From: Spirochaetota bacterium
Lineage (GTDB): Bacteria > Spirochaetota > UBA4802 > UBA5550
Direction: 5' to 3'
Length of the DNA: 64,000 nt
NCBI GenBank assembly: GCA_963664815.2
Contig: CAXXHB010000003.1
Coordinates: forward strand, 448,001-512,000
Shown here one piece after another: positions 21,714 to 58,173 of the stretch (the stretch's first letter is position 1; the number at the start of each line of letters is the position of its first letter). The position numbers were made by a program, and so were the translations under genes. The notes under the pieces were generated by a model. It did no database searches and had not been told where the DNA came from. It worked only from the letters and a program-made list of their open reading frames with translations.

Positions 21714-21783
21714 TTTATTTAACAAGCTCACTTAAGCTTAAAAATTATTGACATTTCGGTTAAAAAAGTTTTTAACAGGCGAC

Positions 21784-24749: not shown

Positions 24750-27671
24750 ATGTATAACCTCGGTATTAGGAAACTCTTTCCCGGCTTCATCTGCCCCTCT
24801 GTTATAAAAACCGGAGTGCGGTTATTTCATTCCATAAAACAGCCTGAACATGTTTTCATGGCCATCTGCTGCCTGGCGCTGCTCCTGTTTACGGCATGCG
24901 GAGATAAAAGCGGGAAAAAGAGGCTCCCCTGTGCAGAGAGGGGGGTAATTGACCTGAGAAACCTGGATTTTCAGAGGAATGGTTCGGTAAACCTTGACGG
25001 GGAGTGGGAGTTCTGCCCCGGCCGTCTCTATACCCCCGGTGATTTTGCGGGAAATAAAACAGAAAATTCGGTTTTTATAAAAGTACCGGGGATGTGGAAA
25101 GATATTACCCCCGGAGGGAATGCTCTTCCGTCAAAGGGGGAGGGAACATACCGCCTGAAGATAATCTGCAGCCCGGATGAACAAAAGAAAGTCATCTCCC
25201 TCTACCGCATCTACTCGGCTTACAGTGTCTGGATAAACGGGGTACATCTCTGTGAAAAGGGGATGGCCGATTCCACCTCAAAGAGTGAAAAGAATTATGT
25301 ATATATCCACAGCAAAACTACAGTGCCCTTCGTACCGGAAAACGGAATAAATGAAATAGTGCTTCAGGTTGTCAATTACGATCATGAGTCGGGGGGTATA
25401 GGGAGACCCCTTGAGCTGCAGAATGAAGAGACCATGCTGCATGACAGGTTTGTAAGGCATACGGTGGAGATGATCATAGTGGGGCTGGTGCTCTTTTTTG
25501 CGATATCAAACCTGCTGCTCTACTTTTTCCGCAGTGATGATAAGGCAGCGCTCTATTCCGGTCTATTCTGTCTCTTCACGGCAGTAAACGTCTTTAACCT
25601 GAATATACCGATACTTTCAGGACCGCTATACTGGACGCGGAATCCCTATATTATTAATTTTGAATCTGTTATCCTTATAGTATTTTTCAACCTTATGTCA
25701 CTCAGAACTATTTTCCCTGATGAATTCTCAACATATATCCTGTACTTCCTTCAGGCAATGCTGCTCCTTTTTTTTGCCGTTCTTCCATTTATCGATTTCG
25801 GAACATCGGAAAAAGTGATGCCGGTCTTTTTCATATTATCACTCTTCTCTCTTACTTACGGACTGTATATTCTTGTGAAAGCAATAATTAACCGCAGGGA
25901 TGACGCCATTCTCTTTTTAACCGGTTTTGCACCGGCATATGCAGGTGGCATAAACGATGCACTGTATGCTCTGTGGATTTTCAAAACCACAAACCTCTAT
26001 CATTACGGGGGGACTGTATTATGTATTATTGTGACCTTTATAGTCGCACGCCGCTTTTCCAGAACCATGCAGAGGCTTTCAGACGATCTTATTGTAAAAA
26101 ATATCTCCCTTGAGAAACTTGACAGGATCAAGGATCAGCTTCTGGCCAATACCTCGCACGAGCTGCGCACCCCGCTTCACGGGATTATAGGCCTTTCCGA
26201 AACAATGCTTGACGGCACGGCTGGCAGCCTGTCACCCGTGGCGCGTGAGAACCTCTCCCTTATAGCATCCAGCGGGCACAGGCTTGCGAATATGGTTAAC
26301 GATCTGCTTGATATGGCCAGAATACAGAGCAGGGGATTTGACCTGAATATCCGCAGTGTTGATCTTTTTACTCTCAGTGAAACCATAGTAAAGCTTTCAC
26401 TCCCGCTGACAGGGGATAGGCCGGTTGAAATCATAAACAGCATCAGTCCCGAAACGCCGCCGGTACATGCCGATGAAAACCGTATAAAACAGGTGCTGCA
26501 TAACCTTGTGGGCAATGCAGTGAAGTTCACGCTGAAAGGGAAGATTGAGCTCTCGGCGGCGGTTATCTCTCCTGATGAATGTGTGGATGGAAGAGGTTTT
26601 GTTGAAGTCAGTATATCCGATACCGGGATCGGGGTTCCGGCAGAGCACCGGGAGAGTATATTCGAGGCATACAGCCAGGTTGATACAGGTGATACGCGTT
26701 CATACTCCGGTACGGGACTTGGGCTTTCAATTGCGAAGCAGATAGTTGAACTGCATGGCGGAACAATAAAAGTTATTCCGGGGATTGGATGCGGTTCGGT
26801 ATTTATATTCTCTCTCCCCCTTGCTGTGAATATTTCCGGGAAGAAAGATGCGGCGGCAGCAGCTGAAGGCATAAATGATCTGCCGCCGGAAAGTGATCCC
26901 GTGTATATAAACAGCCGGACTGACGGGTCAATTAATGGCTTCAGCGGTCTGAACTCTGTGATACTTATCGTGGATGATGATCCGGTGAATGTAAGGATGC
27001 TGAAAAAGCTGTTTGAATCAAAAAACTGCATGGTAAAGAGCGCCTTTGACGGAATAAACGCGCTTGAAATTCTGGAGAGAGACGATACCATAGATCTTGT
27101 ACTGCTTGATATAATGATACCGGTAATATCGGGTTACGAGGTGTGCAGGAGGATACGCATAAGACGGTCGCCGGAAGAACTTCCGGTTATTATGCTGACC
27201 GCAAAAAATATGATGTCTGACATAGATGCAGCCTTCAATGCCGGAGCAAATGACTACATAGTGAAGCCGTTTCGTTTAAGTGAACTGCTGGCCCGCTCTG
27301 CCTCAATGATAAAACTCAGGAAGGTCAGAAAGACCGCTGCAGCCAGTATATCCATACAGAGCAGGGGTACTGTATATACATTCACATTTGACGAGATAGT
27401 CTATATTACCTCATCTGCAAAGAATATCATAGTTCATACAGTTGACGCTGATACCGTCCTCAACGTTATGATGAAAGATATGGCTGACCGGCTTCCATCC
27501 GACATGTTTTTCAGGATTCATAAAAGCCATATTGTCAACATAAGATATATAAGCAGATTAAAACATGTTATATCCGGGCGTTACCGGGTATATCTTTGCG
27601 ATGTGGATAACACGGAATTGCCGGTCGGCCCGGCATTTCTTGAATCCCTCAGAAAAAAAATTCAGAAATGA
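24750..27671 (+). CDS. Hybrid sensor kinase/response regulator 2 (tandem paralog)
   Basis: Same domain order and motifs as 21784-24639. The true start may be the GTG at ~24816. Confidence 0.92.
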   Translation: MYNLGIRKLFPGFICPSVIKTGVRLFHSIKQPEHVFMAICCLALLLFTACGDKSGKKRLPCAERGVIDLRNLDFQRNGSVNLDGEWEFCPGRLYTPGDFAGNKTENSVFIKVPGMWKDITPGGNALPSKGEGTYRLKIICSPDEQKKVISLYRIYSAYSVWINGVHLCEKGMADSTSKSEKNYVYIHSKTTVPFVPENGINEIVLQVVNYDHESGGIGRPLELQNEETMLHDRFVRHTVEMIIVGLVLFFAISNLLLYFFRSDDKAALYSGLFCLFTAVNVFNLNIPILSGPLYWTRNPYIINFESVILIVFFNLMSLRTIFPDEFSTYILYFLQAMLLLFFAVLPFIDFGTSEKVMPVFFILSLFSLTYGLYILVKAIINRRDDAILFLTGFAPAYAGGINDALYALWIFKTTNLYHYGGTVLCIIVTFIVARRFSRTMQRLSDDLIVKNISLEKLDRIKDQLLANTSHELRTPLHGIIGLSETMLDGTAGSLSPVARENLSLIASSGHRLANMVNDLLDMARIQSRGFDLNIRSVDLFTLSETIVKLSLPLTGDRPVEIINSISPETPPVHADENRIKQVLHNLVGNAVKFTLKGKIELSAAVISPDECVDGRGFVEVSISDTGIGVPAEHRESIFEAYSQVDTGDTRSYSGTGLGLSIAKQIVELHGGTIKVIPGIGCGSVFIFSLPLAVNISGKKDAAAAAEGINDLPPESDPVYINSRTDGSINGFSGLNSVILIVDDDPVNVRMLKKLFESKNCMVKSAFDGINALEILERDDTIDLVLLDIMIPVISGYEVCRRIRIRRSPEELPVIMLTAKNMMSDIDAAFNAGANDYIVKPFRLSELLARSASMIKLRKVRKTAAASISIQSRGTVYTFTFDEIVYITSSAKNIIVHTVDADTVLNVMMKDMADRLPSDMFFRIHKSHIVNIRYISRLKHVISGRYRVYLCDVDNTELPVGPAFLESLRKKIQK

Positions 27672-33385: not shown

Positions 33386-33643
33386 CTATTCAGGCTTCTT
33401 ATAATGTGCGCTATATCTGTCAATAACGGTTTTAATCATTGTCTGGTATGGAACCCCGGCTTTTTTTGCTTTTTCTTTGAAAAAATCAACGCTTGATTTA
33501 CTCAGGGAAATAGTAATCTTAACATTATCTTCTTTTTTTATTAATAGTTCCGGAGCTGGCAGAAAATCTTCAATAGTTTCTGAAGACATTATTGATTCTG
33601 CTAATTCCGGAGGAGCTGATTTATAAGTTGTTTTCTTTTTCAT
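33386..33643 (-). CDS. BrnA-like/CopG antitoxin
   Basis: EDFLPAPE, KITISL...FFK..A and PYQTMI motifs. Overlaps the toxin gene. Confidence 0.85.
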   Translation of the reverse strand: MKKKTTYKSAPPELAESIMSSETIEDFLPAPELLIKKEDNVKITISLSKSSVDFFKEKAKKAGVPYQTMIKTVIDRYSAHYKKPE

Positions 33644-33911
33644 ATTTTTTTCTCCCTTCCCGCCAGTAACCGGCTCCGAATATTCTTATTCTGTTATTTC
33701 TTACTGTAAAACGTACGGTCATTATTTTATCTTCGACCAGTCCAAAGCAGAAATATCTTTTTTCAGCTTTTGTTGTATGTTTTGCATCAACAGCTATAAC
33801 TCTTTTTTTGTCAAAAAATGCATTCTGAGCATCAAAAAATGACACGTCATGTTTTGAAATGTTTTCTCTGTTTTTATTTTCATCCCACTCAAAATTCATA
33901 TGTACCATCAT
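33621..33911 (-). CDS. brnT: BrnT-family toxin
   Basis: FEWDENK...N.SKH.VSF and RIRIFGA. The start is probably MNFEWD. Confidence 0.88.
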   Translation of the reverse strand: MMVHMNFEWDENKNRENISKHDVSFFDAQNAFFDKKRVIAVDAKHTTKAEKRYFCFGLVEDKIMTVRFTVRNNRIRIFGAGYWREGRKKYEKENNL

Positions 33912-34227
33912 ACATATTATAAGCCATATGTCAAATTTTATGCCGCCGGTTTTTATAAAAAAACTGTGTTTTCTGACCGGACGTACGGGTCGGTTGGTTC
34001 TTTCCGCCTGACTATGACTCTGTTCCGGGATACTGTAATATCGGCATATTTTTGAGGTTTTTAAACAGATGAGTTGTTATCAAAATTGTAAATTCCGGCA
34101 GCGGGGTCTTCAGTGGTTATTTATACGCTATATTTTTGTCTGAGAGTTTGCATACCCGGTCAAAAACCGGTTTTTCCGGTTAATCTTTTGGCCGGGTGTA
34201 TCATCCGCTGAAGATCCCGCTGTCATG

Positions 34228-37200
34228 TCAGGCGGGAATTGTCAGGATAAAGATGTTGCCCCCTTCAGGATTGCGTTTTGTCGCAATACGGCCGTTAAGT
34301 TCCCTGACCCCCTTTCTGACACCGGAAAGGCTGAACCCGGTTGAACGCCCCGCATCAAAGAGCTGATTAAGATCCTCCCTGTCAAGCCATTGCCCTGAAT
34401 CGGTGATCCTTATTATAATGGAGCCATTCTCTTTATCTGTGCTTACCCCTATCTGCCCGTTTTCACCGGACAGGAACACCGCATTGGTAATAAGATCGCT
34501 CACTACGGATGAGAGTACAGCCGGATTCCCTGTAAATGACGGGCCTCCCGGTGTTATTATGAATTCGCTCCTGGCGCCGTGGTTTCTCTTCACCGCCTCC
34601 ACCGCGTCGGCAATAATTGCGTCAAGGGATTCATCTTCCCCGTCTCCCAGAAGGTTGAGGGCATCAATTAAAGCCCTCCTGGCTCTTCCCCTGTTTTCCT
34701 TTTTAATGTTTTCAAGATCAAGGGAGATGTTAAAACCGGACGTACGTTCCTCAACAAGCCTGTTCTGCTTCTTCAGATTTTCGTTTGTATCAATAACCTG
34801 GTATGTCTTGATGGGGTGATCAATCCCCTTGACCATTACATCCTCCTTTTCAAGACAGTAGTATTTATGTGAAACAAGGGAATACGTTTCATGAGAGATG
34901 AGCACCTGGTCTGTATCGGCCGAGCTTTCAAGCCTGCTTGCAAGGTTTACCTGCGACCCGATAATCGTGTAATCCATCCTTGCCTCGCTGCCGAAATTCC
35001 CCACTGTGCAGTAACCTGTACTTATGCCCATTCTCACATGGAACGGTTCAGCTATTCCATGCTCAAACCAGCGGTTCTGCAGGTATCTGAGCCGCGATTT
35101 CATCTCCACGGCCATGTCCACAGCCGCAACTGCGTCCATCTGTTCGCCCCTGCTATCCGGATCGCCGAAAAATACAAGTATGGCGTCGCCTATGAATTTG
35201 TCAATCGTGGCGCCATATTTTATGGCGATTTGCGACATCTCGTTCAGATAACTATTGAGAAGTTCGGTTAGTGATTCGGTCTCCATTCTTTCAGTTGTCT
35301 GTGTAAAATTCTTTATGTCGGAGAAGAATACTGTGAGCTTTTTCCTGGTGGATGCGATTTTCACATCCTGCTTTCCCGTTAAGATCATATCCCTGATCTG
35401 GGGCGAAAGATATTTTGACAGATTTCCCGAGAGTGATTCAAGTATTGAATTCATGTCGTTGAGCTTGTTCATGGTCTCCTGCAGCTCGCTGGTTCTTTCG
35501 TCAACTTTCTTCTCAAGATTTTCGGTGAAGTCCCTCAGCGTCACAATCATGCTGTTGAAAGTTTTTGCAAGCATGCCTATTTCATCATGTGTGCTGGTGT
35601 CGATCCTCACGTTATAGTTTCCCGATGAAACCGCCTCTGTGGAGGAGATCAGGTGTTTAATGGGATTTGTAATGTTTTTCGAAAGAAATACAACTATTAA
35701 TATGGCGATCGGCGTTATAATAAAAAATCCCATGAGAAAGTTTAACCTTGTCCCCGCAGTAATACTGTTGATTGTTTCCATGAGTTCGGATTTACTTTTA
35801 TTTATATCATCAATGTATGTACCAGTGCCAAGCCACATGTTTGTCCCCGGAACGTTCATTGCTGTGCCAAGCTTGGGATATATGCCTTCGACTCCGGGCT
35901 TACTCCAGTAGAATTCAAGGAACATGCTTTTATTTTTGGCCGCTTCATCAAGTTCCCTTATGATGTACTGCTTACCCTCCGGGTCCTGCATGTCCCACAG
36001 GTTCTTACCCTCAAGATTTTTATTCAGCCCGTGAATCAGGTTTTTGCCGGTTCCGGCCTCGTATGCGTAGAAATACCCGTCTGTGCCGAACCGCAGCTGC
36101 CTCAGAACATCCTGTGTAAGCTTTAACCTCTCAGCCTGAGGGAGTTTATTCATGCCGTTGATCACAGTTGCAAGAGATACGGCCATCTCCGTGTTGTTCC
36201 GGAGCATGAAGCGGTATTTATCGGTCAGCAGGGTCTCGGACTTTTTCATCATATAATCGCTGTACCCTGTGAATGAAAAATTAAATATAAAGTATATCAC
36301 GGCAAAGCTCACAACAAGAGTTGCTATGAGAAATGTGAGAAGTTTGGCAAGAATGCTGTTTTTTCTTGGGAACCTGTCTTTAATGCTGTTCTTCATCCGG
36401 ACCAGGAGTTCCATGAGAGATGCGGGATCTGCGCTGTTTTTAAAATATCCGCGCCATTTGTAAAAAAGATCAGCCATTACCACGATTCCGAGAACAGCTA
36501 TAAAAATTATGAGGAACGCGTTCATTCTCAGATTAAAAGCCTCCGTGGGATTCTGTACTTTGGAGGCTTTTTCAAAGAAGATAAAGACCATCTGCCACGC
36601 CGCTATGTATGATGTTATCAGCATGAAGAGCATGGGGATTACTGTTATCCATATATATTTAACCTTGTCAGTCTTGATCAGAAGAGTGGTGCCTATACCC
36701 AGCGCGGTTGCTGCCAGAATCTGGTTTGCGATACCGAACATGGGCCATATTGTTGAGATGTTGCCGGTGAACAGAAGATAACACCACATAAGAACAATTA
36801 TAAGGCTTGTAACGATAATGTTGATTTCATTTTTATGATTTGAAAAGGGTTTATAGATTCTGCCCCCTATCTCCTGAAGCATGAATCTGCCGACCCTGGT
36901 TCCGGCATCAACAAGAGTCAGAATAAACAGGGCTATAAACATGAGCGAGTAGTTATACCAGTATGGCAAAGCGGCCTTCCCGCCGAAAAGTGATGAAAGC
37001 AGAACCGACATCCCTGCGGCAATCGAAACCGCACCCCCTGTCCTCCCCTGTAGTTCCAGCCCTATGATCTGCGAAAGATCCTTAACCCTTGATACGGGAA
37101 ACCCTATTGATGCCAGCATGTCAGGTGATAACTTTGTATTAATGGCGAAATAATCGCCGGGGATAAGCACAGATGCGGCAATAAGCGCTATCACCGCCAC

Positions 37201-38328
37201 AAAACCTTCAACCAGCATTGAACCGAAACCTATGAGGGGAATGTCCTTTTCGGACATAATCATTTTCGGCGTAGTGCCGGAAGAGATCAGCCCGTGAAAT
37301 CCTGAAATCGCGCCGCAGGCAATGGTAATAAACAGAAAGGGGAAAAGGGTTCCGGGAATAATGGGGCCGCCCCCTGCTATGTATTGTGTGGCTTTTGGCA
37401 TCTCCATAACCGGCATGTTTATAACGATTGCAGCCGCAAGGAGAATAAATGTTCCCACTTTAAGGTATGCCGAAATGTAATCCCTGGGAACAAGGAGCAG
37501 CCAGATCGGCAGGGCCGAGGAGAGGAAACAGAGAATTCCCAGATAAATAATAAGCCTGTTTTTATCAATTGTAAAAATATGGGCAATGGATGAGCCTGGT
37601 ATGCTGCTCCCCAGCAGAACCGCTGCAAGGAGCAGCAGCGCGCCGACTATGCTCACCTCCATTATCTTCCCATGCCTTAAAAAGCGCATATAGATCCCCA
37701 TGAATATGGCGATGGGGAATGTGAGCATGAGAGTGAATGTACCCCAGGAATTCATATTCAGGGAATTTACAACTGACAGCGCTGCGCCGGCAACAGCGAC
37801 AATGACATTGAACACGATTATTAATGCCAGCACAATTCCGCTGAGAGAGCCGATTTCATCCCTTGCTATCTGCGCAAGGGAATGACCCTTGTGCCTGGCT
37901 GAAGCGGCAAGTATAACCATATCATGAACCGCACCGGCAAGCGTGGCGCCGACAAGAATCCATAAGAACCCGGGAAGGTACCCGAACTGTGCGGCCAGCG
38001 TGGGACCTATAAGAGGCCCTGCCCCTGCTATTGCCGCGAAATGATGCCCGAAGAGAACCCACTTATTCATCGGGTAATAATCCACGCCGTCACGCTCCGT
38101 TTCGGATGGCATCAGGTTTGTCTCGTCAAATGCCAGAACCTTTGAGGCGATAAAGGCGCCGTAAAATCTGTATGTTATTATAAAAATGCAGGCAGTAGCT
38201 ACAATAAGCCAGACCGCATTGACTTTTTCACCGGGATTAAGAAACCCCGCGATTACGGCAAGGGATACAGCCGCAATAAAAGATACTATAACCCATATAA
38301 GTTTTTTAAAGATCTTAACTGCCGACAT
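34228..38328 (-). CDS. CstA-family transporter fused to Cache, HAMP, class III adenylate cyclase and a degenerate HATPase
   Basis: The N-terminal ~630 aa has VLFGHHFAAIAGAGPLIGP and ACGAISGFH (CstA). Then a TM, a Cache domain (RFGTDGYFY, FYWSKPG, GTGTYIDD), a TM, a HAMP domain (DEIGMLAKTFNSM) and a cyclase (FSDIKNFT, DKFIGDA, YTIIGSQVNLASRLE). AGGAG RBS. Confidence 0.88.
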   Translation of the reverse strand: MSAVKIFKKLIWVIVSFIAAVSLAVIAGFLNPGEKVNAVWLIVATACIFIITYRFYGAFIASKVLAFDETNLMPSETERDGVDYYPMNKWVLFGHHFAAIAGAGPLIGPTLAAQFGYLPGFLWILVGATLAGAVHDMVILAASARHKGHSLAQIARDEIGSLSGIVLALIIVFNVIVAVAGAALSVVNSLNMNSWGTFTLMLTFPIAIFMGIYMRFLRHGKIMEVSIVGALLLLAAVLLGSSIPGSSIAHIFTIDKNRLIIYLGILCFLSSALPIWLLLVPRDYISAYLKVGTFILLAAAIVINMPVMEMPKATQYIAGGGPIIPGTLFPFLFITIACGAISGFHGLISSGTTPKMIMSEKDIPLIGFGSMLVEGFVAVIALIAASVLIPGDYFAINTKLSPDMLASIGFPVSRVKDLSQIIGLELQGRTGGAVSIAAGMSVLLSSLFGGKAALPYWYNYSLMFIALFILTLVDAGTRVGRFMLQEIGGRIYKPFSNHKNEINIIVTSLIIVLMWCYLLFTGNISTIWPMFGIANQILAATALGIGTTLLIKTDKVKYIWITVIPMLFMLITSYIAAWQMVFIFFEKASKVQNPTEAFNLRMNAFLIIFIAVLGIVVMADLFYKWRGYFKNSADPASLMELLVRMKNSIKDRFPRKNSILAKLLTFLIATLVVSFAVIYFIFNFSFTGYSDYMMKKSETLLTDKYRFMLRNNTEMAVSLATVINGMNKLPQAERLKLTQDVLRQLRFGTDGYFYAYEAGTGKNLIHGLNKNLEGKNLWDMQDPEGKQYIIRELDEAAKNKSMFLEFYWSKPGVEGIYPKLGTAMNVPGTNMWLGTGTYIDDINKSKSELMETINSITAGTRLNFLMGFFIITPIAILIVVFLSKNITNPIKHLISSTEAVSSGNYNVRIDTSTHDEIGMLAKTFNSMIVTLRDFTENLEKKVDERTSELQETMNKLNDMNSILESLSGNLSKYLSPQIRDMILTGKQDVKIASTRKKLTVFFSDIKNFTQTTERMETESLTELLNSYLNEMSQIAIKYGATIDKFIGDAILVFFGDPDSRGEQMDAVAAVDMAVEMKSRLRYLQNRWFEHGIAEPFHVRMGISTGYCTVGNFGSEARMDYTIIGSQVNLASRLESSADTDQVLISHETYSLVSHKYYCLEKEDVMVKGIDHPIKTYQVIDTNENLKKQNRLVEERTSGFNISLDLENIKKENRGRARRALIDALNLLGDGEDESLDAIIADAVEAVKRNHGARSEFIITPGGPSFTGNPAVLSSVVSDLITNAVFLSGENGQIGVSTDKENGSIIIRITDSGQWLDREDLNQLFDAGRSTGFSLSGVRKGVRELNGRIATKRNPEGGNIFILTIPA

Positions 38329-38462
38329 TATATTACTCCTGTACCAGTTACGGAATATTTAAACGTATTTTGAAGACATATGCATCTCCCGGACAAATCC
38401 GGGCCGGTTTGTTCAATCAATTGATTTATCGAACTGTTTATCATAACTTTTCCGGATGAGGT

Positions 38463-38512
38463 TGTCAATGGGTGTGTAGTGAACTGTGCGTATAGTGTAA
38501 TGAACTGTGCGT
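38463..38512 (-). promoter_or_regulatory. LytTR-type direct repeat plus -35 (promoter C, pointing at the cstA-cyclase gene)
   Basis: Minus strand reads ACGCACAGTTCA-N9-ACGCACAGTTCA-N9-CATTGACA. Confidence 0.85.
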
Positions 38513-38667: not shown

Positions 38668-41547
38668 ATGATCAGGCATCTTATGAAAAAAACAATACCC
38701 GGGATATCTGCCCTCTGTTTATTAATTCTCCTGTCCTGCTCAGCCGGGGGTTTGCCCGACAATAGGCAGCCGGCCGTAAATGGTACAATAAACTTCACTG
38801 CTGCTGATTCTGAAAAGAATCCGGTCAATCTTGACGGCCGGTGGGAGTTCTACTGGAACCGCCTTCTTGAGCCCCGTGATTTTTCCGGAAACCCGGAGCA
38901 GGATGGCAGGGTATATATTAATGTGCCGGGGTTGTGGAAGGGGCTCAGGGTTAATAACACTGATCTGCCTGGCGATGGTTACGCCACATACCGCCTTAAG
39001 ATAAATAACAGCAGAGGAAAATCCGTCACATCAAAGACCAGTTCTCTGGAAATATCCGGCATATGCTCCGCGTACAGGCTCTGGATAAATGGTGTCCTGC
39101 TGTCGCAAAGGGGCATTGTAGACATGTCCAGGGATGCCCGTGAACAGTTCATCTTTATATACCACACAAGGATAGTATCTTTCCAGCTCAGAGAGGGTAT
39201 TAACGAAATCGTTATACAGGTGCTTAACTATCATCTTGAGTCCGGCGGCATAGTTAACGCACCTCGCCTGGGGGACGGGGAAACCGAATTGCGGAAACAG
39301 CTGCATACCGGCATTGCAGATATGATTGTGATAAGCCTGCTGCTTTTTGTTTCCATTTACAATATACTGCTGTTTCTGTACAACAAAAAAGACCGTGCGG
39401 CGCTCTACATGGGACTCTTCAGCCTGGTATGGACAATAAACCTGTTCAACCTTCTTACACCTGTTATAAACGATTATTTTTCAAATAACAGGATACCCTA
39501 CCTGGTGGATGCGATCACCATAATGATCATCGCCCCCCTTTTAGTCATGTCAATACACGCCCTCTATCCGGAGGATGCTTTTCCTGAGATTTATAAGCCG
39601 TTTCTGCGGACAGCTCTGGCATATGCGGGAGTTTCCATCATACTTGTACTTGTTTCGGGGTTCAAAGCATCGGAGGGTATAATAGCGGTTTACTATTACT
39701 ATGGTATAGTGGCCATGATATTTTTCGCCTGGGTTTTAGTCAGGATACTGTATAACCGCAGGAACGATGCAATGCTTTTTTTTATCGGTTTTGTCTCTTT
39801 CTTCATTGTGTCGATAAACGACATACTCTGCACACTGCATGTCATCGATACAGTATTTGTTTTTCAGTACGGAATGCTGATATTCTGCTTTACCACCTCA
39901 CTGGTTGTTTCACGCAGATTTGCATTGGCGCTGAAGAAGGTGGAAAATCTTACCATGGTACTGGAAGAAAAGAACATGGCCCTTCTTGAAATGGACAGAC
40001 TCAAGAACGAGTTTCTGGCCAGCACCTCCCATGAGCTGAGGACTCCGCTTCACGGAATGATAGGCCTGTCCGAATCGATGATGCAGGGGACTGCCGGAGA
40101 CCTCCCCGCCATGGCAGTGGAGAATCTTTCACTCATAGCTTCAAGCGGGCACCGTCTCGCCGGTATGGTCAATGATCTGCTGGACATGGCAAGAATACAG
40201 GATGAAATGATGAGCCTTAACCTCAGGCCGGTGGACCTCTTTTCACTCACCGATATGGTCGTAAAGCTTTCACTTCCGCTGGTCGGCGGAAAACCGCTTG
40301 AAATAATAAACAGTATCGAACCGGGAATACCTGCGGTTATGGCAGATGAAGAGCGTATAAGGCAGGTGATGCACAACCTTGTGGGAAACGCCGTGAAGTT
40401 CACCGGCAGAGGAACAGTGACTGTTTCTGCATCGGTGGTTACTCAGGATGAACAGGATATTACACAGTGCAAAATGGTCGAGGTGCGCGTCACGGATACT
40501 GGTATAGGAATTCCACCGGAGTATCGCGAGGCCATATTTGAGCCGTATCGCCAGGTTGATGGCGGTGACACGCGCAGGTACTCAGGTACGGGTCTGGGGC
40601 TTGCCATAGCAAAAAGTATTATTGAACTGCACAAGGGCATAATCAGTGTAAATTCAGGGGAGGGGGGTTCTGTCTTTTCATTCACTCTGCCTGTGTCACC
40701 TGATCAGTCCGGGGCGGATGATCCGGCCGCATCTGAAAGCTTTGATGATACAGCTCTATTCAATGGTGACCTGGAGAGATCATTATCCGTTAAAGCTTCA
40801 GATGGCGAGGTGTTCGACGGAAGCCCGGTGCTCCTGGTCGTGGATGATGACCCGGTGAATGTGCGTATTCTGCAGAATTTTTTTGAATCAAAGAACTGCG
40901 CTGTAAAAACGGCCTTCGACGGAATAAGCGCTCTTGATATTCTGCAAAACGACAGTACAATCGACCTGGTGCTCCTTGATATCATGATGCCGGGTATCTC
41001 CGGTTACGAAGTGTGTAAAAGAGTGCGCCTGGAACATTCTGCAGATGTGCTGCCGGTAATAATGCTCACTGCTAAAAACATGATGTCCGACATAGACGCC
41101 GCGTTTCTGGCCGGCGCCAATGATTACATAGTAAAGCCTTTCAGGATTGCGGAGCTTATGGCCCGCGTAAAGACCATGCTCAAACTGAAGAATATCAGCC
41201 GTACGGAAGCAGAGAGCATCACGATACAGTCATGGAACAACGAATACACTATCAGGTTCGCTGATATTGTCTACATCACCTCACACTCCAGGAACATCAC
41301 TGTACATGCAGTTAAACGCGACTTTGAACTAGCTGTTTTAATGAAGGACATTATTCACCGTCTCCCCCCGGATAATTTCATACGCATACATAAGAGCTAT
41401 GTGGTGAATATAAACTATATTTACAATCTCCAGCATGTGATTTCCGGGAGGTACAAGGCAAGGCTTAAGGATGAGGACGAAACGGATCTGCCGGTTGGGC
41501 CTTCATTCCTTGAAGAGCTGAGGATGAAAATTCACGATAAGAAATAA
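38668..41547 (+). CDS. Hybrid sensor kinase/response regulator 3 (7TM-DISM, HisKA, HATPase, REC, LytTR)
   Basis: LDGRWEFYW, TSHELRTPLH, GTGLGL, LLDIMMP and FIRIHKSYVVN. Divergent from the cstA-cyclase gene. Confidence 0.92.
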   Translation: MIRHLMKKTIPGISALCLLILLSCSAGGLPDNRQPAVNGTINFTAADSEKNPVNLDGRWEFYWNRLLEPRDFSGNPEQDGRVYINVPGLWKGLRVNNTDLPGDGYATYRLKINNSRGKSVTSKTSSLEISGICSAYRLWINGVLLSQRGIVDMSRDAREQFIFIYHTRIVSFQLREGINEIVIQVLNYHLESGGIVNAPRLGDGETELRKQLHTGIADMIVISLLLFVSIYNILLFLYNKKDRAALYMGLFSLVWTINLFNLLTPVINDYFSNNRIPYLVDAITIMIIAPLLVMSIHALYPEDAFPEIYKPFLRTALAYAGVSIILVLVSGFKASEGIIAVYYYYGIVAMIFFAWVLVRILYNRRNDAMLFFIGFVSFFIVSINDILCTLHVIDTVFVFQYGMLIFCFTTSLVVSRRFALALKKVENLTMVLEEKNMALLEMDRLKNEFLASTSHELRTPLHGMIGLSESMMQGTAGDLPAMAVENLSLIASSGHRLAGMVNDLLDMARIQDEMMSLNLRPVDLFSLTDMVVKLSLPLVGGKPLEIINSIEPGIPAVMADEERIRQVMHNLVGNAVKFTGRGTVTVSASVVTQDEQDITQCKMVEVRVTDTGIGIPPEYREAIFEPYRQVDGGDTRRYSGTGLGLAIAKSIIELHKGIISVNSGEGGSVFSFTLPVSPDQSGADDPAASESFDDTALFNGDLERSLSVKASDGEVFDGSPVLLVVDDDPVNVRILQNFFESKNCAVKTAFDGISALDILQNDSTIDLVLLDIMMPGISGYEVCKRVRLEHSADVLPVIMLTAKNMMSDIDAAFLAGANDYIVKPFRIAELMARVKTMLKLKNISRTEAESITIQSWNNEYTIRFADIVYITSHSRNITVHAVKRDFELAVLMKDIIHRLPPDNFIRIHKSYVVNINYIYNLQHVISGRYKARLKDEDETDLPVGPSFLEELRMKIHDKK

Positions 41548-42124: not shown

Positions 42125-43993
42125 CTATTCTTCGAGTGATCCTGTAAATGTGTTGTCAGATGCCTTGGTTGTTGCCCCTTCATTAAACTTGATAGCTTCA
42201 ACTCTTCCGAATACTTTCGGGAATTCATTTCCAAGGTAGAACTGTGCAGAGAGAACTCTTCCTGAATAATATGCTGCTTCGCTGTTTTCTGAGAGGAGTT
42301 TTTCCCTGTCAGCGCCTTTAAGATCTCCAACAAGAGCTTTCATCTTGGGAACAGATACTGTTAAACTCCAGAGATGACACCATGCAATAGCCACCATGTA
42401 CATAACATCAAGGAAAGGTGTGGCATGTGCAAAAATAGAAAGGAACTGGCCTTTGCCGAGCATCCCTTTGAAAATCTCGAGAAGTTCATCAACCTCTTTG
42501 ATCCCTCTTGAGAGAAGGTCAATATATTTGTCTTCAACGATACCTTTGGCTTTTGCTATAACACCTTCCATTCTTGATTTAAGAACAGAATAGTTGTACT
42601 GATTTTTGTTCATGAGAATTTTTCTCATTATAAGGTCCATTGCCTGGATTCCGTTTGTTCCTTCATAGAGGCAGAGGATCTTGGAGTCTGCCATGTGTCT
42701 TGCAACAGGGTAGTCTCTGCAGTATCCGTATCCGCCATATACCTGCATTGCCATTGATGTGATTTCAACGCCCTTATCTGTACATCCTGCTTTACAGATA
42801 GGAACAAGAAGTTCAAGCATTGCGCTGGCTTCTTTGCTGATTGTGGGATCGCTGCTCTTCATGATGTCATTCTGCATGTAAAGGAAGTCGATGAGAATTC
42901 TCTGTCCCTCGATGTGTGATTTCATCCAGAGGAGCATTCTTTTAACGTCGGGATGTTTGCTGATGGAAACAAGAGGAGCATCAGGATTCATCATCTGGAT
43001 TACATCAACGCCCTGGAGCCTGTTTTTCGCGTATGTTACAGCATGCATATATGCTGCAGATGCGTTTCCATGAGCCTGCATTGAAACACCGCAGCGCTCT
43101 TCGTTCATCATCTGGAACATGATTTTCATACCCTGGCGCTCTTCGCCGAGAAGGTATCCGATACAGTCGTTGTTGTCGCCGAAAGCGAGCTGTGAAGTAG
43201 CCTGGCCGTGGAGACCCATCTTGTGCTCAACGCCGGTACATGTTACATCGTTAAATTTTCCCATTGAACCGTCAGGATTAACGCGGTATTTGGGGACTAT
43301 AAAGATTGATATACCCTTTGTTCCCTTGGGATCCCCTTCAATTCTTGCAAGTACAGGGTGAACCATGTTTTTGTAGTGGTCATTTTCACCTGAGGAGATG
43401 AATATTTTCTGGCCGGTAATTTTATATGTTCCATCGGGCTGTTTTACAGCTTTGGTTTTAAGGTTACCTACATCTGATCCTGCATCCGGTTCTGTAAGGC
43501 ACATTGTTCCGCCCCATTCCCCTGTCATGATCTTGTCGCCATAGAGTTTACTCTGCTCCGGAGTTCCGAATGTAAAGTAGAGTTCCATTGCTCCGTGAGA
43601 AAGTCCGGGATACATTCCGAAAGGCATGTTTGCCGCACATACATATTCCATAACGGCCGAGTTAACCGCAAAGGGCATACCCATTCCGCCATGTTTAGGG
43701 GTAACAGCAACTCCCATAAAACCTGCTTCGTAGAATGCGTCAAGCGCCCCGTGAAAGCATTTGGGTATTGTTACCGCTTTGGTAACCGGGTCCCATTTAA
43801 CTCCCTCATTATCACCCTCTTCGGCAGTGGGATAGATAACGTTGACGGAAATCTGTTCCGCGAGATCAATTACCGCTTCAAAGGTATCATGATCAAAATC
43901 ACCAAATTCCGGGTACTTTACGAGTTTGTCAATTTCGAACATTTCAAATAAAACAAACTTGACATCTCTTGTGTCGACCAACGTATTAAGCAT
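42125..43993 (-). CDS. Acyl-CoA dehydrogenase
   Basis: MCLTEPDAGSD, EHKMG, GGYGY and LYEGTNGIQ motifs. Confidence 0.95.
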   Translation of the reverse strand: MLNTLVDTRDVKFVLFEMFEIDKLVKYPEFGDFDHDTFEAVIDLAEQISVNVIYPTAEEGDNEGVKWDPVTKAVTIPKCFHGALDAFYEAGFMGVAVTPKHGGMGMPFAVNSAVMEYVCAANMPFGMYPGLSHGAMELYFTFGTPEQSKLYGDKIMTGEWGGTMCLTEPDAGSDVGNLKTKAVKQPDGTYKITGQKIFISSGENDHYKNMVHPVLARIEGDPKGTKGISIFIVPKYRVNPDGSMGKFNDVTCTGVEHKMGLHGQATSQLAFGDNNDCIGYLLGEERQGMKIMFQMMNEERCGVSMQAHGNASAAYMHAVTYAKNRLQGVDVIQMMNPDAPLVSISKHPDVKRMLLWMKSHIEGQRILIDFLYMQNDIMKSSDPTISKEASAMLELLVPICKAGCTDKGVEITSMAMQVYGGYGYCRDYPVARHMADSKILCLYEGTNGIQAMDLIMRKILMNKNQYNYSVLKSRMEGVIAKAKGIVEDKYIDLLSRGIKEVDELLEIFKGMLGKGQFLSIFAHATPFLDVMYMVAIAWCHLWSLTVSVPKMKALVGDLKGADREKLLSENSEAAYYSGRVLSAQFYLGNEFPKVFGRVEAIKFNEGATTKASDNTFTGSLEE

Positions 43994-44497: not shown

Positions 44498-46663
44498 TTA
44501 AATCATTTTAGAACTTCTCAGAGCGGATAGAAGCACTTTGCGCATAATTTTTTCTTTACGGTTTGAGGGCTTATCAAGCTGCATCCTCCTGAGGAAGGGT
44601 TCTGCCTTTGCAGGAACCGGTTTAAACATCTCGGCCAGAAGTCCTTTAAGGACATCTGATTTTTTCCTGCTGGTAAGTCCCTTCAGCGCTGCCCCGAGAA
44701 CCATCTCCTCCATGGTGAAATCTGTCCCGAAGGGGAATGCAGGGAAATAACCCCTGGCCTGGTAAGGCTTCAGCATTGCTTCCAGCTTCTGGGGGGTATT
44801 GTGCCTGTATTCATCGGCAAGTTTGAAATCGGGTGCCAGCTTCCCGTTAAGCTTGGCTTTCTGTATAAGTTCATCCTGGAAGCGGGAATCTGTTATTTTC
44901 AGAATCTCTTCAATGACCTTTGAATCCTGGAGTCCTCTTACGCTGGCTATACCGTATTCGGTAACTATAATATCCCTCAGGTGCCTTGGAATTGTAGTAT
45001 GGCCGTAGTTGTAGACTATATTGGATTTTGTGTTTTCCCCGGAACCCCTTGTGCTCTTGATCATCATAATAAGCCTTCCGTCGGGGATTGCATGTGCCAT
45101 TGAAACAAAATTATACTGTCCGCCGACTCCGCTTATAAGACGGCCGTCTTCAAGCTGATCGGATGTAATGGCTCCAAGCAGATGCGCCATCATCCCTGCG
45201 TTTACGAAACGCCCCTCTTTTCTCTGGAGTACGCGGAGTTCCTCATCCCCGTAAAGCTGGTTTACCTTTTCAACGCCCGACATTCCAAATTGGGTTCTCT
45301 CCTCCTCGCTCATTGCGTTCAGGGCGTCGTAGAAGGAGTGAGGCCCCAGGAAGAATGCCCCGAGCAGTACCTTGCCGTTTTTAAGCCGGTCGCCGAGGAA
45401 TATTTTAATCTCTTCCAGGTTCTTCTTCTCGTAGAAGTCTGCCGAAACTTTTATGTTCCCGTCACTGATAAAACCATCTTTGAATGTGAGCCCTTTTTTC
45501 AGTATGCCGAACGTTGTCAGCATTTTAAAATCCTTCTCTCTCAGCCTCGGGTAAATACCCTCAACCTCTATAAGGAGTTCCAGGATGTTTGAAGGGATGC
45601 TGTCGCCCGTGAGCTTTCCGGATTTGAAAAGCCTCATGATGCCGAGGTTGTCGTAGACCTTGCGTTTAATAACACCCTCTTTGTACAGCTGAAGCAAGCC
45701 GTTGACGATCATCTCCGAGGAACCGTATAACCCTTCTTCGAATGTACCGGTACCGCCGATTTTATCTATAACGCTCTTGTGCCGGTCGAGGATACCATTC
45801 TCCTTCAGCAGCCTGTTGTAATCTTCATTGTGTTTGTGGCGCATTATAAGGCTTGAGGCAATTGCGTCTCCCAGTGATCCTATCCCTATCTGGAGTGTGC
45901 CGCCGTCCTTGACAAGTGTGCTTACGTAAAGCCCTATGGCGTGGTTGGCAATTCCTATTGAATCGTTGGGGGTGCCGAAAAGGTTTGTCTTGAATTCGGG
46001 CCCCTCGAAAATAATATCATATGTATCAGCTTCAATAACCGCGTCGCCATACATAAACGGCACTGTGGGGTTAACCTCTCCCAGTATTACAACCTTGCCC
46101 CCCCTGTCCCGTATCTTGTTAAGCTCCTCGAAAGCCTGAAACGCAATATCCGTGGCACACCCCATTGAGTAGGCCTTCTGCCCGTCACGGTCGGCCGTCG
46201 TAAGAATCTGCCCGAAAACGTTGCACCCGAAATCGATGGCATCTCTCACTATATGAGCGTAGTTAGAGTAAAGGTGGTTCCTCTGGGCTTCGGGGATGCG
46301 CAGGGCGCTGCCGGCCTTGTAGAAGAATTCATAAATTGAAACGTTTTTCGGGAGCTTGCCGCTGTGGAAATCGGCAATGTAGTCATAGACAGGTACTCCG
46401 TCAAAAATCCTGTCAAGCAGGGGCTCTGCAAATCTTTTTTCCATATCGCTTTTTGTTTTTGGTCGTTCAAGCGAGAGGCTTGTAACTATCTTCAGTTTAA
46501 TCGAGGGATCTTCCTTTGCCCTCCTGTAAAGCTCGTTGATAAACCTTGTCGGGTTACCAATTCCCAGGGGCATGGCGAAAGTGATATCCTTCTCCATGTA
46601 GTTGATGATATCATCAACCCCCTTCCTTACATCACTGTAGACTTCACCTTTCTTTCCGTTCAT
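44498..46663 (-). CDS. Acetyl-CoA hydrolase/CoA-transferase family protein (long form)
   Basis: DGGTLQIGIGSLG, SEM, SGVGGQYNFV and RDIIVTEYGIA motifs. Confidence 0.88.
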   Translation of the reverse strand: MNGKKGEVYSDVRKGVDDIINYMEKDITFAMPLGIGNPTRFINELYRRAKEDPSIKLKIVTSLSLERPKTKSDMEKRFAEPLLDRIFDGVPVYDYIADFHSGKLPKNVSIYEFFYKAGSALRIPEAQRNHLYSNYAHIVRDAIDFGCNVFGQILTTADRDGQKAYSMGCATDIAFQAFEELNKIRDRGGKVVILGEVNPTVPFMYGDAVIEADTYDIIFEGPEFKTNLFGTPNDSIGIANHAIGLYVSTLVKDGGTLQIGIGSLGDAIASSLIMRHKHNEDYNRLLKENGILDRHKSVIDKIGGTGTFEEGLYGSSEMIVNGLLQLYKEGVIKRKVYDNLGIMRLFKSGKLTGDSIPSNILELLIEVEGIYPRLREKDFKMLTTFGILKKGLTFKDGFISDGNIKVSADFYEKKNLEEIKIFLGDRLKNGKVLLGAFFLGPHSFYDALNAMSEEERTQFGMSGVEKVNQLYGDEELRVLQRKEGRFVNAGMMAHLLGAITSDQLEDGRLISGVGGQYNFVSMAHAIPDGRLIMMIKSTRGSGENTKSNIVYNYGHTTIPRHLRDIIVTEYGIASVRGLQDSKVIEEILKITDSRFQDELIQKAKLNGKLAPDFKLADEYRHNTPQKLEAMLKPYQARGYFPAFPFGTDFTMEEMVLGAALKGLTSRKKSDVLKGLLAEMFKPVPAKAEPFLRRMQLDKPSNRKEKIMRKVLLSALRSSKMI

Positions 46664-47858: not shown

Positions 47859-48461
47859 TTATATTAATTTAATTCTTTTTCTGAGCCTTGAAAGGGCTAC
47901 ATCGGTTATACGCAGATATGATGCGATGTGGTATTGCGGCAGCCTGCGGACAATCTCCGGGTGTTTTTTTATGAACCTTAAATACTGTACTTCGGGAGAA
48001 TCAAGGACACCACTCTCTCTTGCTTCAATCTGGATAAGAGAGTTTTCCGCTATTAAACGGCCGAGCCTCTCCCAGCACTTGTGTCTTTCATACAGCTCGT
48101 CAATTTTTGATCTCCATAAAAGGCCGGCAACAGTATCTTCAAGGGCCTGGATATAAAACCTGCTGGGTAAAGATTTGATCATGGAGCCTATGGAACCGAC
48201 CAGGTTATTTTCAATGGCAAATCCCCTGTTGAACTCCTTGCCCGTGTCGGTTAAATAGTAGATGCGTACCAGCCCTTTGACAATAATAAATGAATGGTCT
48301 GCAACGGTATCAGCAGTAAGAAGGTATTCGTTCTTTTTAAAACGCTGAATGGTGATACAGTTTATGGCATAGTTCCACTCCTCATCGGGGATATGAGTAT
48401 ATGTTTCAAAAACATCTCTTATTTGCAGAAGTGCATCATCCATAGTCGGTTTCCGTTTCAC
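47859..48461 (-). CDS. Crp/Fnr-family transcriptional regulator
   Basis: cNMP-binding fold (IVKGLVRIYY..GKE, IQALED) and a QYHIASYL.IT.V.LSRLR HTH. Confidence 0.9.
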   Translation of the reverse strand: MKRKPTMDDALLQIRDVFETYTHIPDEEWNYAINCITIQRFKKNEYLLTADTVADHSFIIVKGLVRIYYLTDTGKEFNRGFAIENNLVGSIGSMIKSLPSRFYIQALEDTVAGLLWRSKIDELYERHKCWERLGRLIAENSLIQIEARESGVLDSPEVQYLRFIKKHPEIVRRLPQYHIASYLRITDVALSRLRKRIKLI

Positions 48462-48812
48462 TGGAAATTATTTAACATAAAATGAATTATGTTAAGTTAT
48501 ATAAACCCTTATATATAAGATAAGACATTATGGCCGTATTTTAAAAGCCAGTCATATGCCGGTCAAGCTGATTTATTCCGACAGGATTTAAAAAAACATG
48601 GCCGGCCTGCAGCTTTTTTTTGCGCAGAAAATTTTATTGTATTATATAAGATATAGCAGTTTAAAAGAGCTAAATATTTTTTTAATCCAGGGGGTATTTA
48701 TGCCCCTCACCCGTCTTGATGAAATGAAACGGGGAGAGGGGAAATGATCGATACCGGGGGGTTAGCCAACCTTCTGTTCATTTGCAATATCAAATGTTAT
48801 CTTAAGGCCGGT

Positions 48813-48920
48813 TACTTTTCATATAAAGTTTCAGGCGATATTTCAACAGACCAATTTTCCCATGAAAGTGTCCCGTAATCTATCGGAAATTGCCTGAATT
48901 TTTCCATGTTGCGGATATTT
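48813..48920 (-). pseudogene. Remnant of a DUF2442-like gene (C-terminal half)
   Basis: Reads NIRNMEKFRQFPIDYGTLSWENWSVEISPETLYEK*, resembling the GTL.W....DI.PETLY tail of DUF2442 proteins. Confidence 0.55.
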
Positions 48921-49079
48921 ATGGATATATCGGTGCACAGTATAATTAATGTACAGGATATTCTATGTCATACTGGTTCCGGTATTATAAGTCATATTTT
49001 CTGCTTGAAATCTGCAGTAATATAACAGTAATATAATAGAAAATAAAACTGTTGGTAATATACAGTTTACAGGAATAAT

Positions 49080-49478
49080 ATGGATATCGATAGAAAAGTA
49101 ATGTATTGGATTAAAAGCGCTGAAAGCGATTTTGAAGCTTCGACAGCTCTTTTTAATAATGCCAGTTATCTGCAGATGGCTTTCTTCTGTCATCTTGCCG
49201 TAGAGAAATATTTAAAAGCATACCACTGGTATAAACTTCATACGGAACCGACTTATACCCATAATCTTTTAAAACTGTCAAAAGATAACGGTTTGTTTGA
49301 GTATTTGTCAAATGAGCAAAAGGAGTTTATGGCTGCACTCATCCCTTTGAATCTAAAAGGCAGGTATCCAGATGATCAGGACACAATATTATTGAATCTT
49401 ACATCAGCTGATTTTGAAGATATACTACATAAAACGAAGGAGCTCCTGGAATGGATCAGAAAGTATTTAACAGAGTGA
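49080..49478 (+). CDS. HEPN domain protein (toxin)
   Basis: FFCHLAVEKYLKA, THNL..L and GRYPD motifs. Confidence 0.9.
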   Translation: MDIDRKVMYWIKSAESDFEASTALFNNASYLQMAFFCHLAVEKYLKAYHWYKLHTEPTYTHNLLKLSKDNGLFEYLSNEQKEFMAALIPLNLKGRYPDDQDTILLNLTSADFEDILHKTKELLEWIRKYLTE

Positions 49479-49768
49479 AACTTTTCGCATCAAATATTCA
49501 GGCATTATTTCCGGTTAAAATGATTATACTATACGGTTCTTATGCCAGGGGCACAGAGCGTCCCGACAGTGATATTGATGTGGCTGTTGTAGTCAATGAG
49601 CTGAATGACAACTGGCTTAAGGTAAACAGTAAACTTTTTCTGATGTCATCAGATATAGATGATAAAATAGAACCAAACCTGATTATATGCAAAGATAATA
49701 AAAGTGAATTTCTGGAAAGCATTCTGAAATATGGAATTGTCATTTATGATGATTCAAAAGTTGCATAA
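49451..49768 (+). CDS. Minimal nucleotidyltransferase (MNT antitoxin)
   Basis: LYGSYARG....DSDIDV. Overlaps the HEPN gene. Confidence 0.92.
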   Translation: MDQKVFNRVKLFASNIQALFPVKMIILYGSYARGTERPDSDIDVAVVVNELNDNWLKVNSKLFLMSSDIDDKIEPNLIICKDNKSEFLESILKYGIVIYDDSKVA

Positions 49769-50054
49769 GCGACTTTTATCTCTAAAAAGAAGTACAGCTT
49801 TGTACATGATGCCTTAGATGCAGGTAAAATACATGTTTTTACATATAAAGTGCTGTCTGTATCCCCACTTCTCCCTTTTCAATATATCAGAGGGGAGAAG
49901 GGGGATAAGGGCGTTGAGTTAATTAACTGAATTTATAACAGTAAAAAGATAGGGAGCAGTATCGAAGGAGTATGCTATGTAGTACGGAGAGGGTACAGAT
50001 TGGCTTCAGAGCGGGTACAGGGTGGATACGGTTAGGATTGTTTAAGTTATAATA

Positions 50055-50390
50055 TCACAATTCCGTTTCAGAAAGCCGGGCCGGTCTGGTTTCCGGGGCT
50101 TTTTCATGTTTATGAGACTTCATATACTGTTTAATAAACAGATTGTGCCCGTGTATCCTCAGCTTGCGGGATTTTTTCCTGTATACCTGTTTTTCGTCCT
50201 CGCTTAAAAGCTTCCATGCGGCCATAGCCTCGGCGAAAAGCGACCTGTGGCAATGCTGGGCTTCTGTATCGGGGTTTGCCGGAACTACATATTTTCTTGA
50301 ACAGAGTTTGTCGCCCCACATGTAATATACAACATCTCCGTTGCGCCCCCCTATACCGTTGAGTAATGATGAAACCTTTCCTTTAGCCAT
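50055..50390 (-). CDS. Small basic hypothetical protein (DUF6266-like)
   Basis: GGAGG RBS, a G..G.VVYY...RKYVVPANP.TEAQ...R..F..A..AW pattern, K/R rich. Confidence 0.6.
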   Translation of the reverse strand: MAKGKVSSLLNGIGGRNGDVVYYMWGDKLCSRKYVVPANPDTEAQHCHRSLFAEAMAAWKLLSEDEKQVYRKKSRKLRIHGHNLFIKQYMKSHKHEKAPETRPARLSETEL

Positions 50391-52301: not shown

Positions 52302-52344
52302 ATTATGGCAATATGGTTATTAAAAAAGATTTCATGGAGGCTTT

Positions 52345-54522: not shown

Positions 54523-54523
54523 T

Positions 54524-58102: not shown

Positions 58103-58173
58103 AAATAAAAACTTACGGCAGAATATTAAACAAAATTATTAATAATATACTCTGCAGACTATAACTTATATTT

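Follow-up and report, generated by a model that had tools for sequence, protein, structure and literature searches.

A CstA-type permease fused to a Cache-HAMP receptor and a class III nucleotide cyclase in a Spirochaetota bacterium

Introduction

How bacteria integrate the supply of a nutrient with its uptake has mostly been studied in non-covalent pairs of a sensor and a transporter, or in the SLC5-STAC kinases, and the coupling in these systems is still unclear. A 64,000-nucleotide stretch of a Spirochaetota genome (assembly GCA_963664815.2, contig CAXXHB010000003.1, positions 448,001 to 512,000; hereafter the window) raises the same question in covalent form. A single gene at 34228-38328 on its minus strand encodes a CstA-family permease that is followed, in the same polypeptide, by a Cache receptor, a HAMP domain, a class III nucleotide cyclase and a histidine-kinase-like tail. 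Is this a real gene, and if so, might the permease influence the cyclase? An initial annotation, made from the sequence alone, had suggested that transport flux and an extracytoplasmic ligand might jointly control the output of cyclic AMP (cAMP). Our analysis indicates that the fusion is genuine and extremely rare, and we propose, at about even odds (a probability near 0.5), that its product is a dimeric receptor adenylate cyclase of the inner membrane, tethered permanently to a CstA-type permease of predicted LeuT fold, with the permease modulating the signal.

Results

Architecture of the fusion gene

The open reading frame list and the translation agree with the initial annotation that one uninterrupted frame of 1366 amino acids (aa) spans the locus. 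It lies on the minus strand, and a plus-strand reading of 34228-38328 runs into many stops. By Pfam and hydropathy, the domain order of the product (P0001) is CstA, transmembrane helix, sCache_2, transmembrane helix, HAMP, cyclase and CA-like tail, so the full-length permease followed by a membrane-flanked Cache, HAMP, cyclase and HATPase-like tail that had been read from the letters is upheld. The gene and its parts are as follows.

34228-38328, minus strand: whole gene, 1366 aa, stop codon included in the interval, ATG start, protein P0001 (open reading frame list and translation, Pfam)
36454-38328, minus strand: CstA-family permease module, residues 1-625 (Pfam, NCBIfam, AlphaFold 2 (AF2) model)
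36358-36453, minus strand: linker, residues 626-657, K/R-rich and weakly conserved
35683-36357, minus strand: transmembrane helix (663-681), periplasmic sCache_2 domain (682-863) and transmembrane helix (864-882) (Pfam, hydropathy)
35359-35682, minus strand: HAMP domain (881-933) and helical connector to residue 990 (Pfam HAMP, 55.3 bits)
34789-35358, minus strand: class III nucleotide cyclase, CyaB-like, residues 991-1180 (Pfam, alignment to 3R5G)
34231-34788, minus strand: tail, residues 1181-1366, with a beta-hairpin, a short hairpin of two helices, and a CA-like domain of the histidine-kinase type

Eight families were matched when P0001 was scanned against Pfam at E <= 0.1, and the matches that define the architecture are these.

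Residues 37-574: CstA, 652.2 bits against a cut-off of 27, covering profile positions 1-558 of 560
Residues 702-846: sCache_2, 93.9 bits (dCache_2 scores 98.2 bits over the same stretch)
Residues 881-933: HAMP, 55.3 bits
Residues 995-1178: Guanylate_cyc (PF00211), 100.8 bits
Residues 1269-1365: HATPase_c, 47.7 bits

The fusion is a genuine gene

The most mundane explanation would be that an error in sequencing or assembly had run two adjoining genes together, or that the frame is a decaying pseudogene, and the copies we found already contradict it. The same genome (three contigs, 5.2 Mb) carries a second full-length copy without stops (L011, C3:2259594-2263685, 80% identity); two independent intact copies in one three-contig assembly are difficult to attribute to error, as is a third, also intact, that comes from another assembly (P0003, 1367 aa, 78%). 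A fourth copy (L012), in a genome of a different genus within the same family (G088), is the one that speaks for an artefact and against our proposal: it has a 1-nt deletion that shifts the frame in a short A-run near residue 500, its tail holds a run of N (an assembly gap) with C-terminal residues that match the other copies, and it may represent a pseudogene or else a fault of the assembly. Its break, however, lies inside the CstA part and away from the junction. The linker, which measures 28-32 residues in the four copies, differs between them by indels that are all in frame. Purifying selection also acts along the full length and on every domain: between the two paralogues of this genome, whose synonymous sites are saturated, the ratio of nonsynonymous to synonymous substitution rates (dN/dS) is 0.033 in CstA, 0.095 in HAMP, 0.025 in the cyclase, 0.11 in the CA-like tail and 0.28 in the linker.

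A 22-row tree of the sensor half unites the four fused genes in a single clade, supported at 100/100, which argues for a single origin; the fusion arose once and was later duplicated. The counter-case that the initial annotation had raised, relatives that always encode two separate genes, is found outside this clade, where each half has as its closest relatives genes that stand separately and are not adjacent (a point in favour of an artefact), and not within it, where all four copies are fused. The fusion, which comprises four genes in three genomes of one family, is in our view a genuine gene and no assembly artefact, an explanation to which we attach almost no credence.

The signals around the gene were read from the same strand.

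38440-38468, minus strand: sigma-70-like promoter match TTGACA-17-TATGAT, 11/12, about 110 nt upstream of the ATG (consensus scan)
38336-38340, minus strand: Shine-Dalgarno AGGAG, 7 nt before the ATG at 38328 (read from the sequence)
34150-34190, minus strand: terminator-like hairpin with a U-run, about 50-70 nt past the stop codon

The promoter match is a pattern only, as the region holds 13 such sites against 9.8 +/- 3.4 in shuffled sequences. The hairpin is recovered by a scan (34156-34181) and by RNA folding of 34130-34240 on the minus strand (-34.4 kcal/mol, z -3.68). No purine-rich Shine-Dalgarno precedes the linker ATGs M639 and M645, which bears out the earlier remark that these codons lack a ribosome-binding site. 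With its own ribosome-binding site, promoter-like site and terminator-like hairpin, the fusion gene looks like a self-contained unit.

Distribution and relatives of the two halves

The architecture is extremely rare. Searching residues 1-1200 with phmmer against 1.84 billion representative proteins gave 113,095 matches at E <= 0.001, and among the best 150 of these only P0002, the representative of a fused cluster at 50% identity, matched both halves (2280 bits); next came proteins with the sensor alone (764 and 719 bits), and those with CstA alone reached at most 511 bits. Word-index searches with the N-terminal and the C-terminal half as queries each returned PF02554 and PF00211 together in 2 of the 120 proteins listed. 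When a query spanning the junction was run against 122 genomes of the order, matches across it were confined to G000 (two of them) and G088; in a 401-genome sample of the phylum they were confined to G000. Among the papers listed in literature searches, no title or opening part of an abstract described a CstA-cyclase fusion, and the initial annotation likewise named no described case.

Both halves have stand-alone relatives. The nearest stand-alone CstA (G035, 650 aa, 53%) aligns to residues 5-630, and for this reason we consider the permease module complete. The nearest stand-alone sensors are tail-less sCache_2-HAMP-cyclase proteins of about 577 aa (G015, G022, P0123 and others; 54-58%), and the G015 and G022 genes do not adjoin any cstA gene. 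The same CA-like tail is present in two stand-alone sensors, P0122 (737 aa) and P0388 (741 aa), and missing from about 13 others. Since the N-terminal stub MKxxSILxKLL of P0122 and P0388 aligns with fusion residues 655-665, the junction falls immediately upstream of where the sensor gene once started. Read-through of an operon is one way in which the fusion might have come about. A metagenome scan with an alignment of the sensor half (A2), which works through generic cyclase-motif patterns, covered 80 loci of 592 relatives; none of the 80 had CstA, this Cache domain or the tail in its flanks, and the loci were ordinary CyaB-like cyclases.

The Cache domain and its putative ligand

The Cache domain lies between two transmembrane helices (663-681 and 864-882), and the solved chains closest to it are sCache_2 domains from Vibrio parahaemolyticus, 2QHK (E 6.5e-22) and 4EXO (E 2.1e-20), followed by the acetate-bound 4K08 and by PscD (5G4Y). 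The 4EXO structure is described as containing pyruvate (PMC5062169), with ligand contacts given as Y96, F98, H109, F148, W150 and K161 (preprint 10.1101/2025.02.11.637667). These map to Y752, Y754, H766, F806, W808 and K819 of the fusion; every contact position is retained, with a single F-to-Y change. The six residues do not vary among the three full-length fused copies, and Y752, H766 and K819 are invariant in 18/18 members of A2. A histidine at the H109 position is presented as typical of pyruvate or acetate binding, where L-lactate sensors have leucine (10.1101/2025.02.11.637667). The ligand is probably of the C2/C3 carboxylate class that CstA-family permeases carry, because the 4EXO contacts are kept and CstA-family permeases are pyruvate/H+ symporters, and both inputs of the protein would then plausibly see the same class of compound. 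Assigning the domain to sCache_2, with the pyruvate contacts of 4EXO, is where we refine the initial annotation, of which the architecture, the single frame, the rarity and the adenylate cyclase otherwise stand.

The cyclase and its tail

An identity of about 66% to Pseudomonas aeruginosa CyaB (3R5G; E 3.9e-77 over 194 residues) makes it very probable that the cyclase is an adenylate cyclase. Class III cyclases use two metal-binding aspartates, a lysine and a threonine that specify the substrate, and an asparagine and an arginine that stabilise the transition state. The residues that the initial annotation had picked out for these roles are present, in the motifs FFSD (D1004), IDKF-GDA (K1044, D1048), CTVGN (T1108) and N1128..S1131-R1132; none varies among the three aligned full-length proteins, and all are identical to those of CyaB.

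There are 10 cyclase-domain matches in the genome and 25 matches to cyclic nucleotide monophosphate (cNMP)-binding domains, 23 of them over the cut-off. One of the 25 lies in the window, 10 kb from the fusion gene: at 47859-48461 on the minus strand, a Crp-like protein of 200 aa that bears a cNMP-binding domain. We considered it as a linked partner and dropped it, because the neighbourhood is not conserved; the three loci with context (the window, L011 and L012) have no neighbouring genes in common, and proximity is thus no evidence of a link.

The tail resembles a kinase core that has lost its catalytic equipment. Its sequence matches in the PDB are to histidine-kinase CA domains only (ZraS, ThkA, CpxA), and its AF2 model (pLDDT 77) combines a CA fold with a beta-hairpin and two short helices; for this model Foldseek returned the cores of CpxA, ZraS and HK853 as well as the CA domain of ThkA (TM-score 0.76, root-mean-square deviation (rmsd) 3.2 A). 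P0001 has no HisKA match at E <= 0.1, and H1250, the sole histidine between residues 1181 and 1260, is not conserved across the copies. The tail retains the N-box asparagine (N1282) and, in G1, the D-x-G; the second G1 glycine is a tryptophan here and is absent from 5/5 tails compared, G2 is degenerate (STGFSL, TPG-SL and VTGLSL in three copies), P0388 has histidine for the N-box asparagine, and the lid is 5 residues shorter than that of ZraS. The absence of a phospho-acceptor histidine and the degenerate boxes had been noted before and are borne out. Having neither a DHp/HisKA phospho-acceptor histidine nor intact G boxes, the protein lacks the marks of a sensor histidine kinase, and we read the tail as a pseudo-kinase still under selection. 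An active kinase, or a serine kinase of the anti-sigma type, was rejected as our principal explanation, given the degenerate G boxes and the lack of a STAS-type partner nearby.

The permease module

No solved structure of the CstA family was found by sequence search at E <= 0.01. The AF2 model, built from 70 sequences, has a pLDDT of 95.1 and shows two N-terminal helices followed by a LeuT/APC-fold core at residues ~80-616. Structure comparison (VIA-align) placed ApcT first (Z 22.7, rmsd 3.8 A, 400 residues aligned), followed by KimA (22.5), BasC (22.4), NKCC1 (22.2), LeuT (18.1) and SGLT1 (11.6), and we predict from the model that the module adopts a LeuT/APC fold. With two extra N-terminal helices and an even-numbered core, both permease termini would be cytoplasmic, and the K/R-rich N-terminus and linker (9-10 K/R in residues 623/625-662) agree; the Cache domain would then lie outside, and HAMP and the cyclase inside. 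CstA and BtsT of Escherichia coli are described as H+/pyruvate symporters (PMC7730263).

Does the module still transport? Here we compared it with 145 stand-alone homologues, the nearest ones and not the whole CstA family, at the 149 columns where these show conservation of at least 90%. The fusion keeps 131/149, including two Gly-rich broken-helix motifs. The other 18/149 are changed, about eight of them non-conservatively and in a way specific to the fused copies (R71N/K, T73M, T87M, I174N, Y266L, G267C, R364P, E465I); H459N is also non-conservative but is common to some stand-alone homologues. Because the nearest stand-alone CstAs retain the family residue at the eight positions, proton-coupled transport may have been altered or lost, which would weaken the notion of a permease that modulates the cyclase by carrying its ligand.

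One could go further and suppose that the CstA module does not transport at all and is a transporter-like receptor, much like the permease-derived sensors that do not transport, reporting substrate binding or membrane energisation to the cyclase. The loss of such widely conserved residues as a helix-embedded glutamate (E465I), R71, R364 and H459, most of which the nearest stand-alone CstAs retain, would fit this idea, as would the separate, conventional CstA gene of 557 aa that the genome carries beside its two fused modules, and the lack in the genome of a YbdD/YjiX-type partner (PF04328). Yet both of the Gly-rich motifs among the 131 columns kept are typical of LeuT-fold substrate sites, dN/dS in CstA is as low as in the cyclase, and no family residue has been tied experimentally to coupling or binding in the sources we used, which makes the substitutions hard to interpret. 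We consider a non-transporting module unlikely.

How the fusion might work

From the architecture of the gene, its integrity, conservation and rarity, and its folds and motifs, we infer a ligand, transport, a cAMP output and possibly a coupling between them, in the following manner. The periplasmic sCache_2 domain would bind a small carboxylate, with pyruvate or another C2/C3 acid as the likeliest candidate, and the signal would pass through the second transmembrane helix and HAMP to the CyaB-type class III cyclase, changing the synthesis of cAMP, which would in turn supply the large set of cNMP-binding proteins. The CstA module would bind, and probably carry, the same class of substrate and so provide a second, modulatory input, either through lateral contacts between transmembrane helices or by depleting the ligand locally at the sensor. 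The C-terminal pseudo-kinase core would serve as a dimerisation or regulatory module and not as a phosphodonor.

Several observations weigh against this proposal. The linker is the least conserved segment, with 19-42% identity between copies as against 73-89% in the flanking domains, and its dN/dS is the highest of all segments; such weak conservation speaks against mechanical coupling through the linker, which looks like a flexible tether and not like a transmission element. The Pfam scan of P0001 found neither a STAC-like transmission domain nor an SSS domain. As regards the permease, its score against the NCBIfam model of the pyruvate/proton symporter CstA (NF011590) is 548 bits, far below the equivalog cut-off of 1188 bits, with model positions 604-701 unmatched, so that pyruvate is a putative substrate, and peptides are also claimed as substrates for the CstA family. 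As regards the Cache domain, its suggested ligand derives from likeness to a Vibrio receptor, itself uncharacterised, whose crystal structure contains pyruvate, and sCache_2 domains with identical pockets are described as differing widely in affinity (PMC5062169). Finally, the junction-spanning query found the gene in none (0/7) of the other genomes of the bacterium's own genus.

Much of this would be expected if the two parts had independent functions, a working permease and an ordinary receptor cyclase that are fused for equal amounts and co-localisation, with no flow of information between them. In addition to the poorly conserved, indel-bearing linker and the missing STAC-like connector, the sensor half also occurs in stand-alone, functional-looking form (P0122 and P0388 with the tail, about 13 without), and the transport activity and the kinase activity of CbrA, the best-studied precedent, are reported to be largely independent of each other, neither needing the other, and to be unaffected by substrate (PMC7096432). 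On the other hand, the fusion has stayed intact in two paralogues up to saturation of dS, and in four genes overall, which is hard to explain without a benefit; the linker has kept its length at 28-32 residues; and the fused CstA modules share specific substitutions at conserved positions, suggesting adaptation to the fused state. Independence is possible, though we think it rather less than probable, and we prefer a receptor cyclase whose signal the tethered permease modulates.

We also speculate about a more elaborate version of that preferred reading, in which the protein compares supply with uptake: the Cache domain would read the external carboxylate and CstA the compound that is bound or carried, so that cAMP would report supply against uptake, or else CstA, having lost H+-coupled transport (E465I and the other fusion-specific changes), would be a dedicated intramembrane receptor. 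This is a tentative idea and, to our minds, a doubtful one. If true, the protein would be a hard-wired counterpart of co-sensing of the DctA/DcuS type, with a second-messenger output.

Genomic surroundings

Other features of the window and of the second locus were noted along the way. Three paralogous membrane proteins of about 960-973 aa combine 7TMR-DISM_7TM, HisKA, HATPase_c, receiver and LytTR DNA-binding domains, a whole two-component pathway, in a single chain; one of them is the upstream neighbour of the fusion gene and is divergent from it. Directly downstream of the fusion gene lies a BrnT/BrnA type II toxin-antitoxin pair, and a low-GC stretch (35-41%) at about 48000-61000 looks like a defence island.

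6493-8019, plus strand: DDE transposase in a low-GC patch (GC 0.35)
8460-10328 and 42125-43993, both minus strand: two acyl-CoA dehydrogenase paralogues of 622 aa each, alike in Pfam domain order
21748-24639 and 24750-27671, both plus strand: two of the three single-chain two-component paralogues
33386-33911, minus strand: BrnT (96 aa) and BrnA (85 aa), with their own promoter-like site TTGACA-16-TATGAT at 33934-33907
38668-41547, plus strand: third single-chain two-component paralogue, the upstream neighbour
44498-46663: acetyl-CoA hydrolase/transferase gene
49080-49478: HEPN (island)
49451-49768: nucleotidyltransferase (island)
50679-52301: N6/N4 DNA methylase (island)
52345-54522: AAA_21/OLD-like ATPase (island)
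54524-55390: DUF3226 (island)
55484-58102: ResIII helicase (island)
58174-60594: AEP-TOTE primase-helicase (island)
L011 15634-16427, plus strand: barnase-like ribonuclease and barstar inhibitor, near the second fusion copy
L011 16437-18743, minus strand: 7TMR-DISM-GGDEF-HD-GYP protein, near the second fusion copy

Discussion

The fusion would work like known transporter-sensor units but belongs to none of the groups that come closest to it: the SLC5-STAC kinases, DctA/DcuS and BtsS/BtsT. The SLC5-STAC kinases CbrA, CrbS and RpuS likewise place a LeuT-fold transporter N-terminal to a cytoplasmic signalling output in one chain; they are described as concerned with the status of carbon sources (histidine, acetate, pyruvate), and CbrA has been called a rare 'transceptor' (PMC13022988, PMC7096432, PMC9100948). 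In contrast, the transporter here is CstA (TC 2.A.114) and not SLC5, there is no STAC connector, a full input unit (transmembrane helix, sCache_2, transmembrane helix, HAMP) is inserted between transporter and output, and the output is a cyclase instead of an active histidine kinase. What the permease shares with SGLT-type transporters is the LeuT fold, as the Z of 11.6 for SGLT1 against 22.7 for ApcT illustrates. DctA/DcuS and BtsS/BtsT of E. coli also pair a carboxylate permease with a carboxylate sensor that has a periplasmic domain. DctA is reported to act as co-regulator of DcuS, with which it forms sensor units (PMC4280142), and BtsS to sense pyruvate and control the CstA-family symporter BtsT (PMC10653868, PMC7730263). 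These are separate proteins with two-component phosphorelay outputs, whereas the fusion is covalent and has a predicted cAMP output.

The separate modules also have known counterparts. The catalytic domain of CyaB is alike in its motifs and, over the aligned 194 residues, in sequence, but CyaB has no Cache, HAMP, permease or CA-like tail; it is anchored by a MASE2 membrane domain. The sCache_2 receptors 2QHK/4EXO, PscD, McpP and Adeh_3718 belong to the same domain family as the Cache domain, and are chemoreceptors with a methyl-accepting chemotaxis protein output where the fusion has a cyclase. The stand-alone sCache_2-HAMP-cyclase proteins (P0122, P0388, P0123 and those of G015 and G022) have the same domain order and 54-64% identity over the sensor half, and have no CstA. 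From the known transporter-sensor units the fusion differs in four respects: its transporter family, a complete periplasmic receptor placed between transporter and output, a predicted cAMP output and a pseudo-kinase tail behind the output domain.

The narrow distribution of the fusion limits its general importance. Nevertheless, one chain joins a LeuT-fold permease, a receptor for what is plausibly the same carboxylate, an output, cAMP, that is easily measured, and a pseudo-kinase tail, and the stand-alone versions of the two halves are natural controls, so that the question of coupling is directly testable. The fusion also approaches the link between CstA and cAMP from the other end: cAMP-CRP is described as activating cstA in E. 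coli (PMC7730263), and here a CstA module sits on the very enzyme that is predicted to make cAMP.

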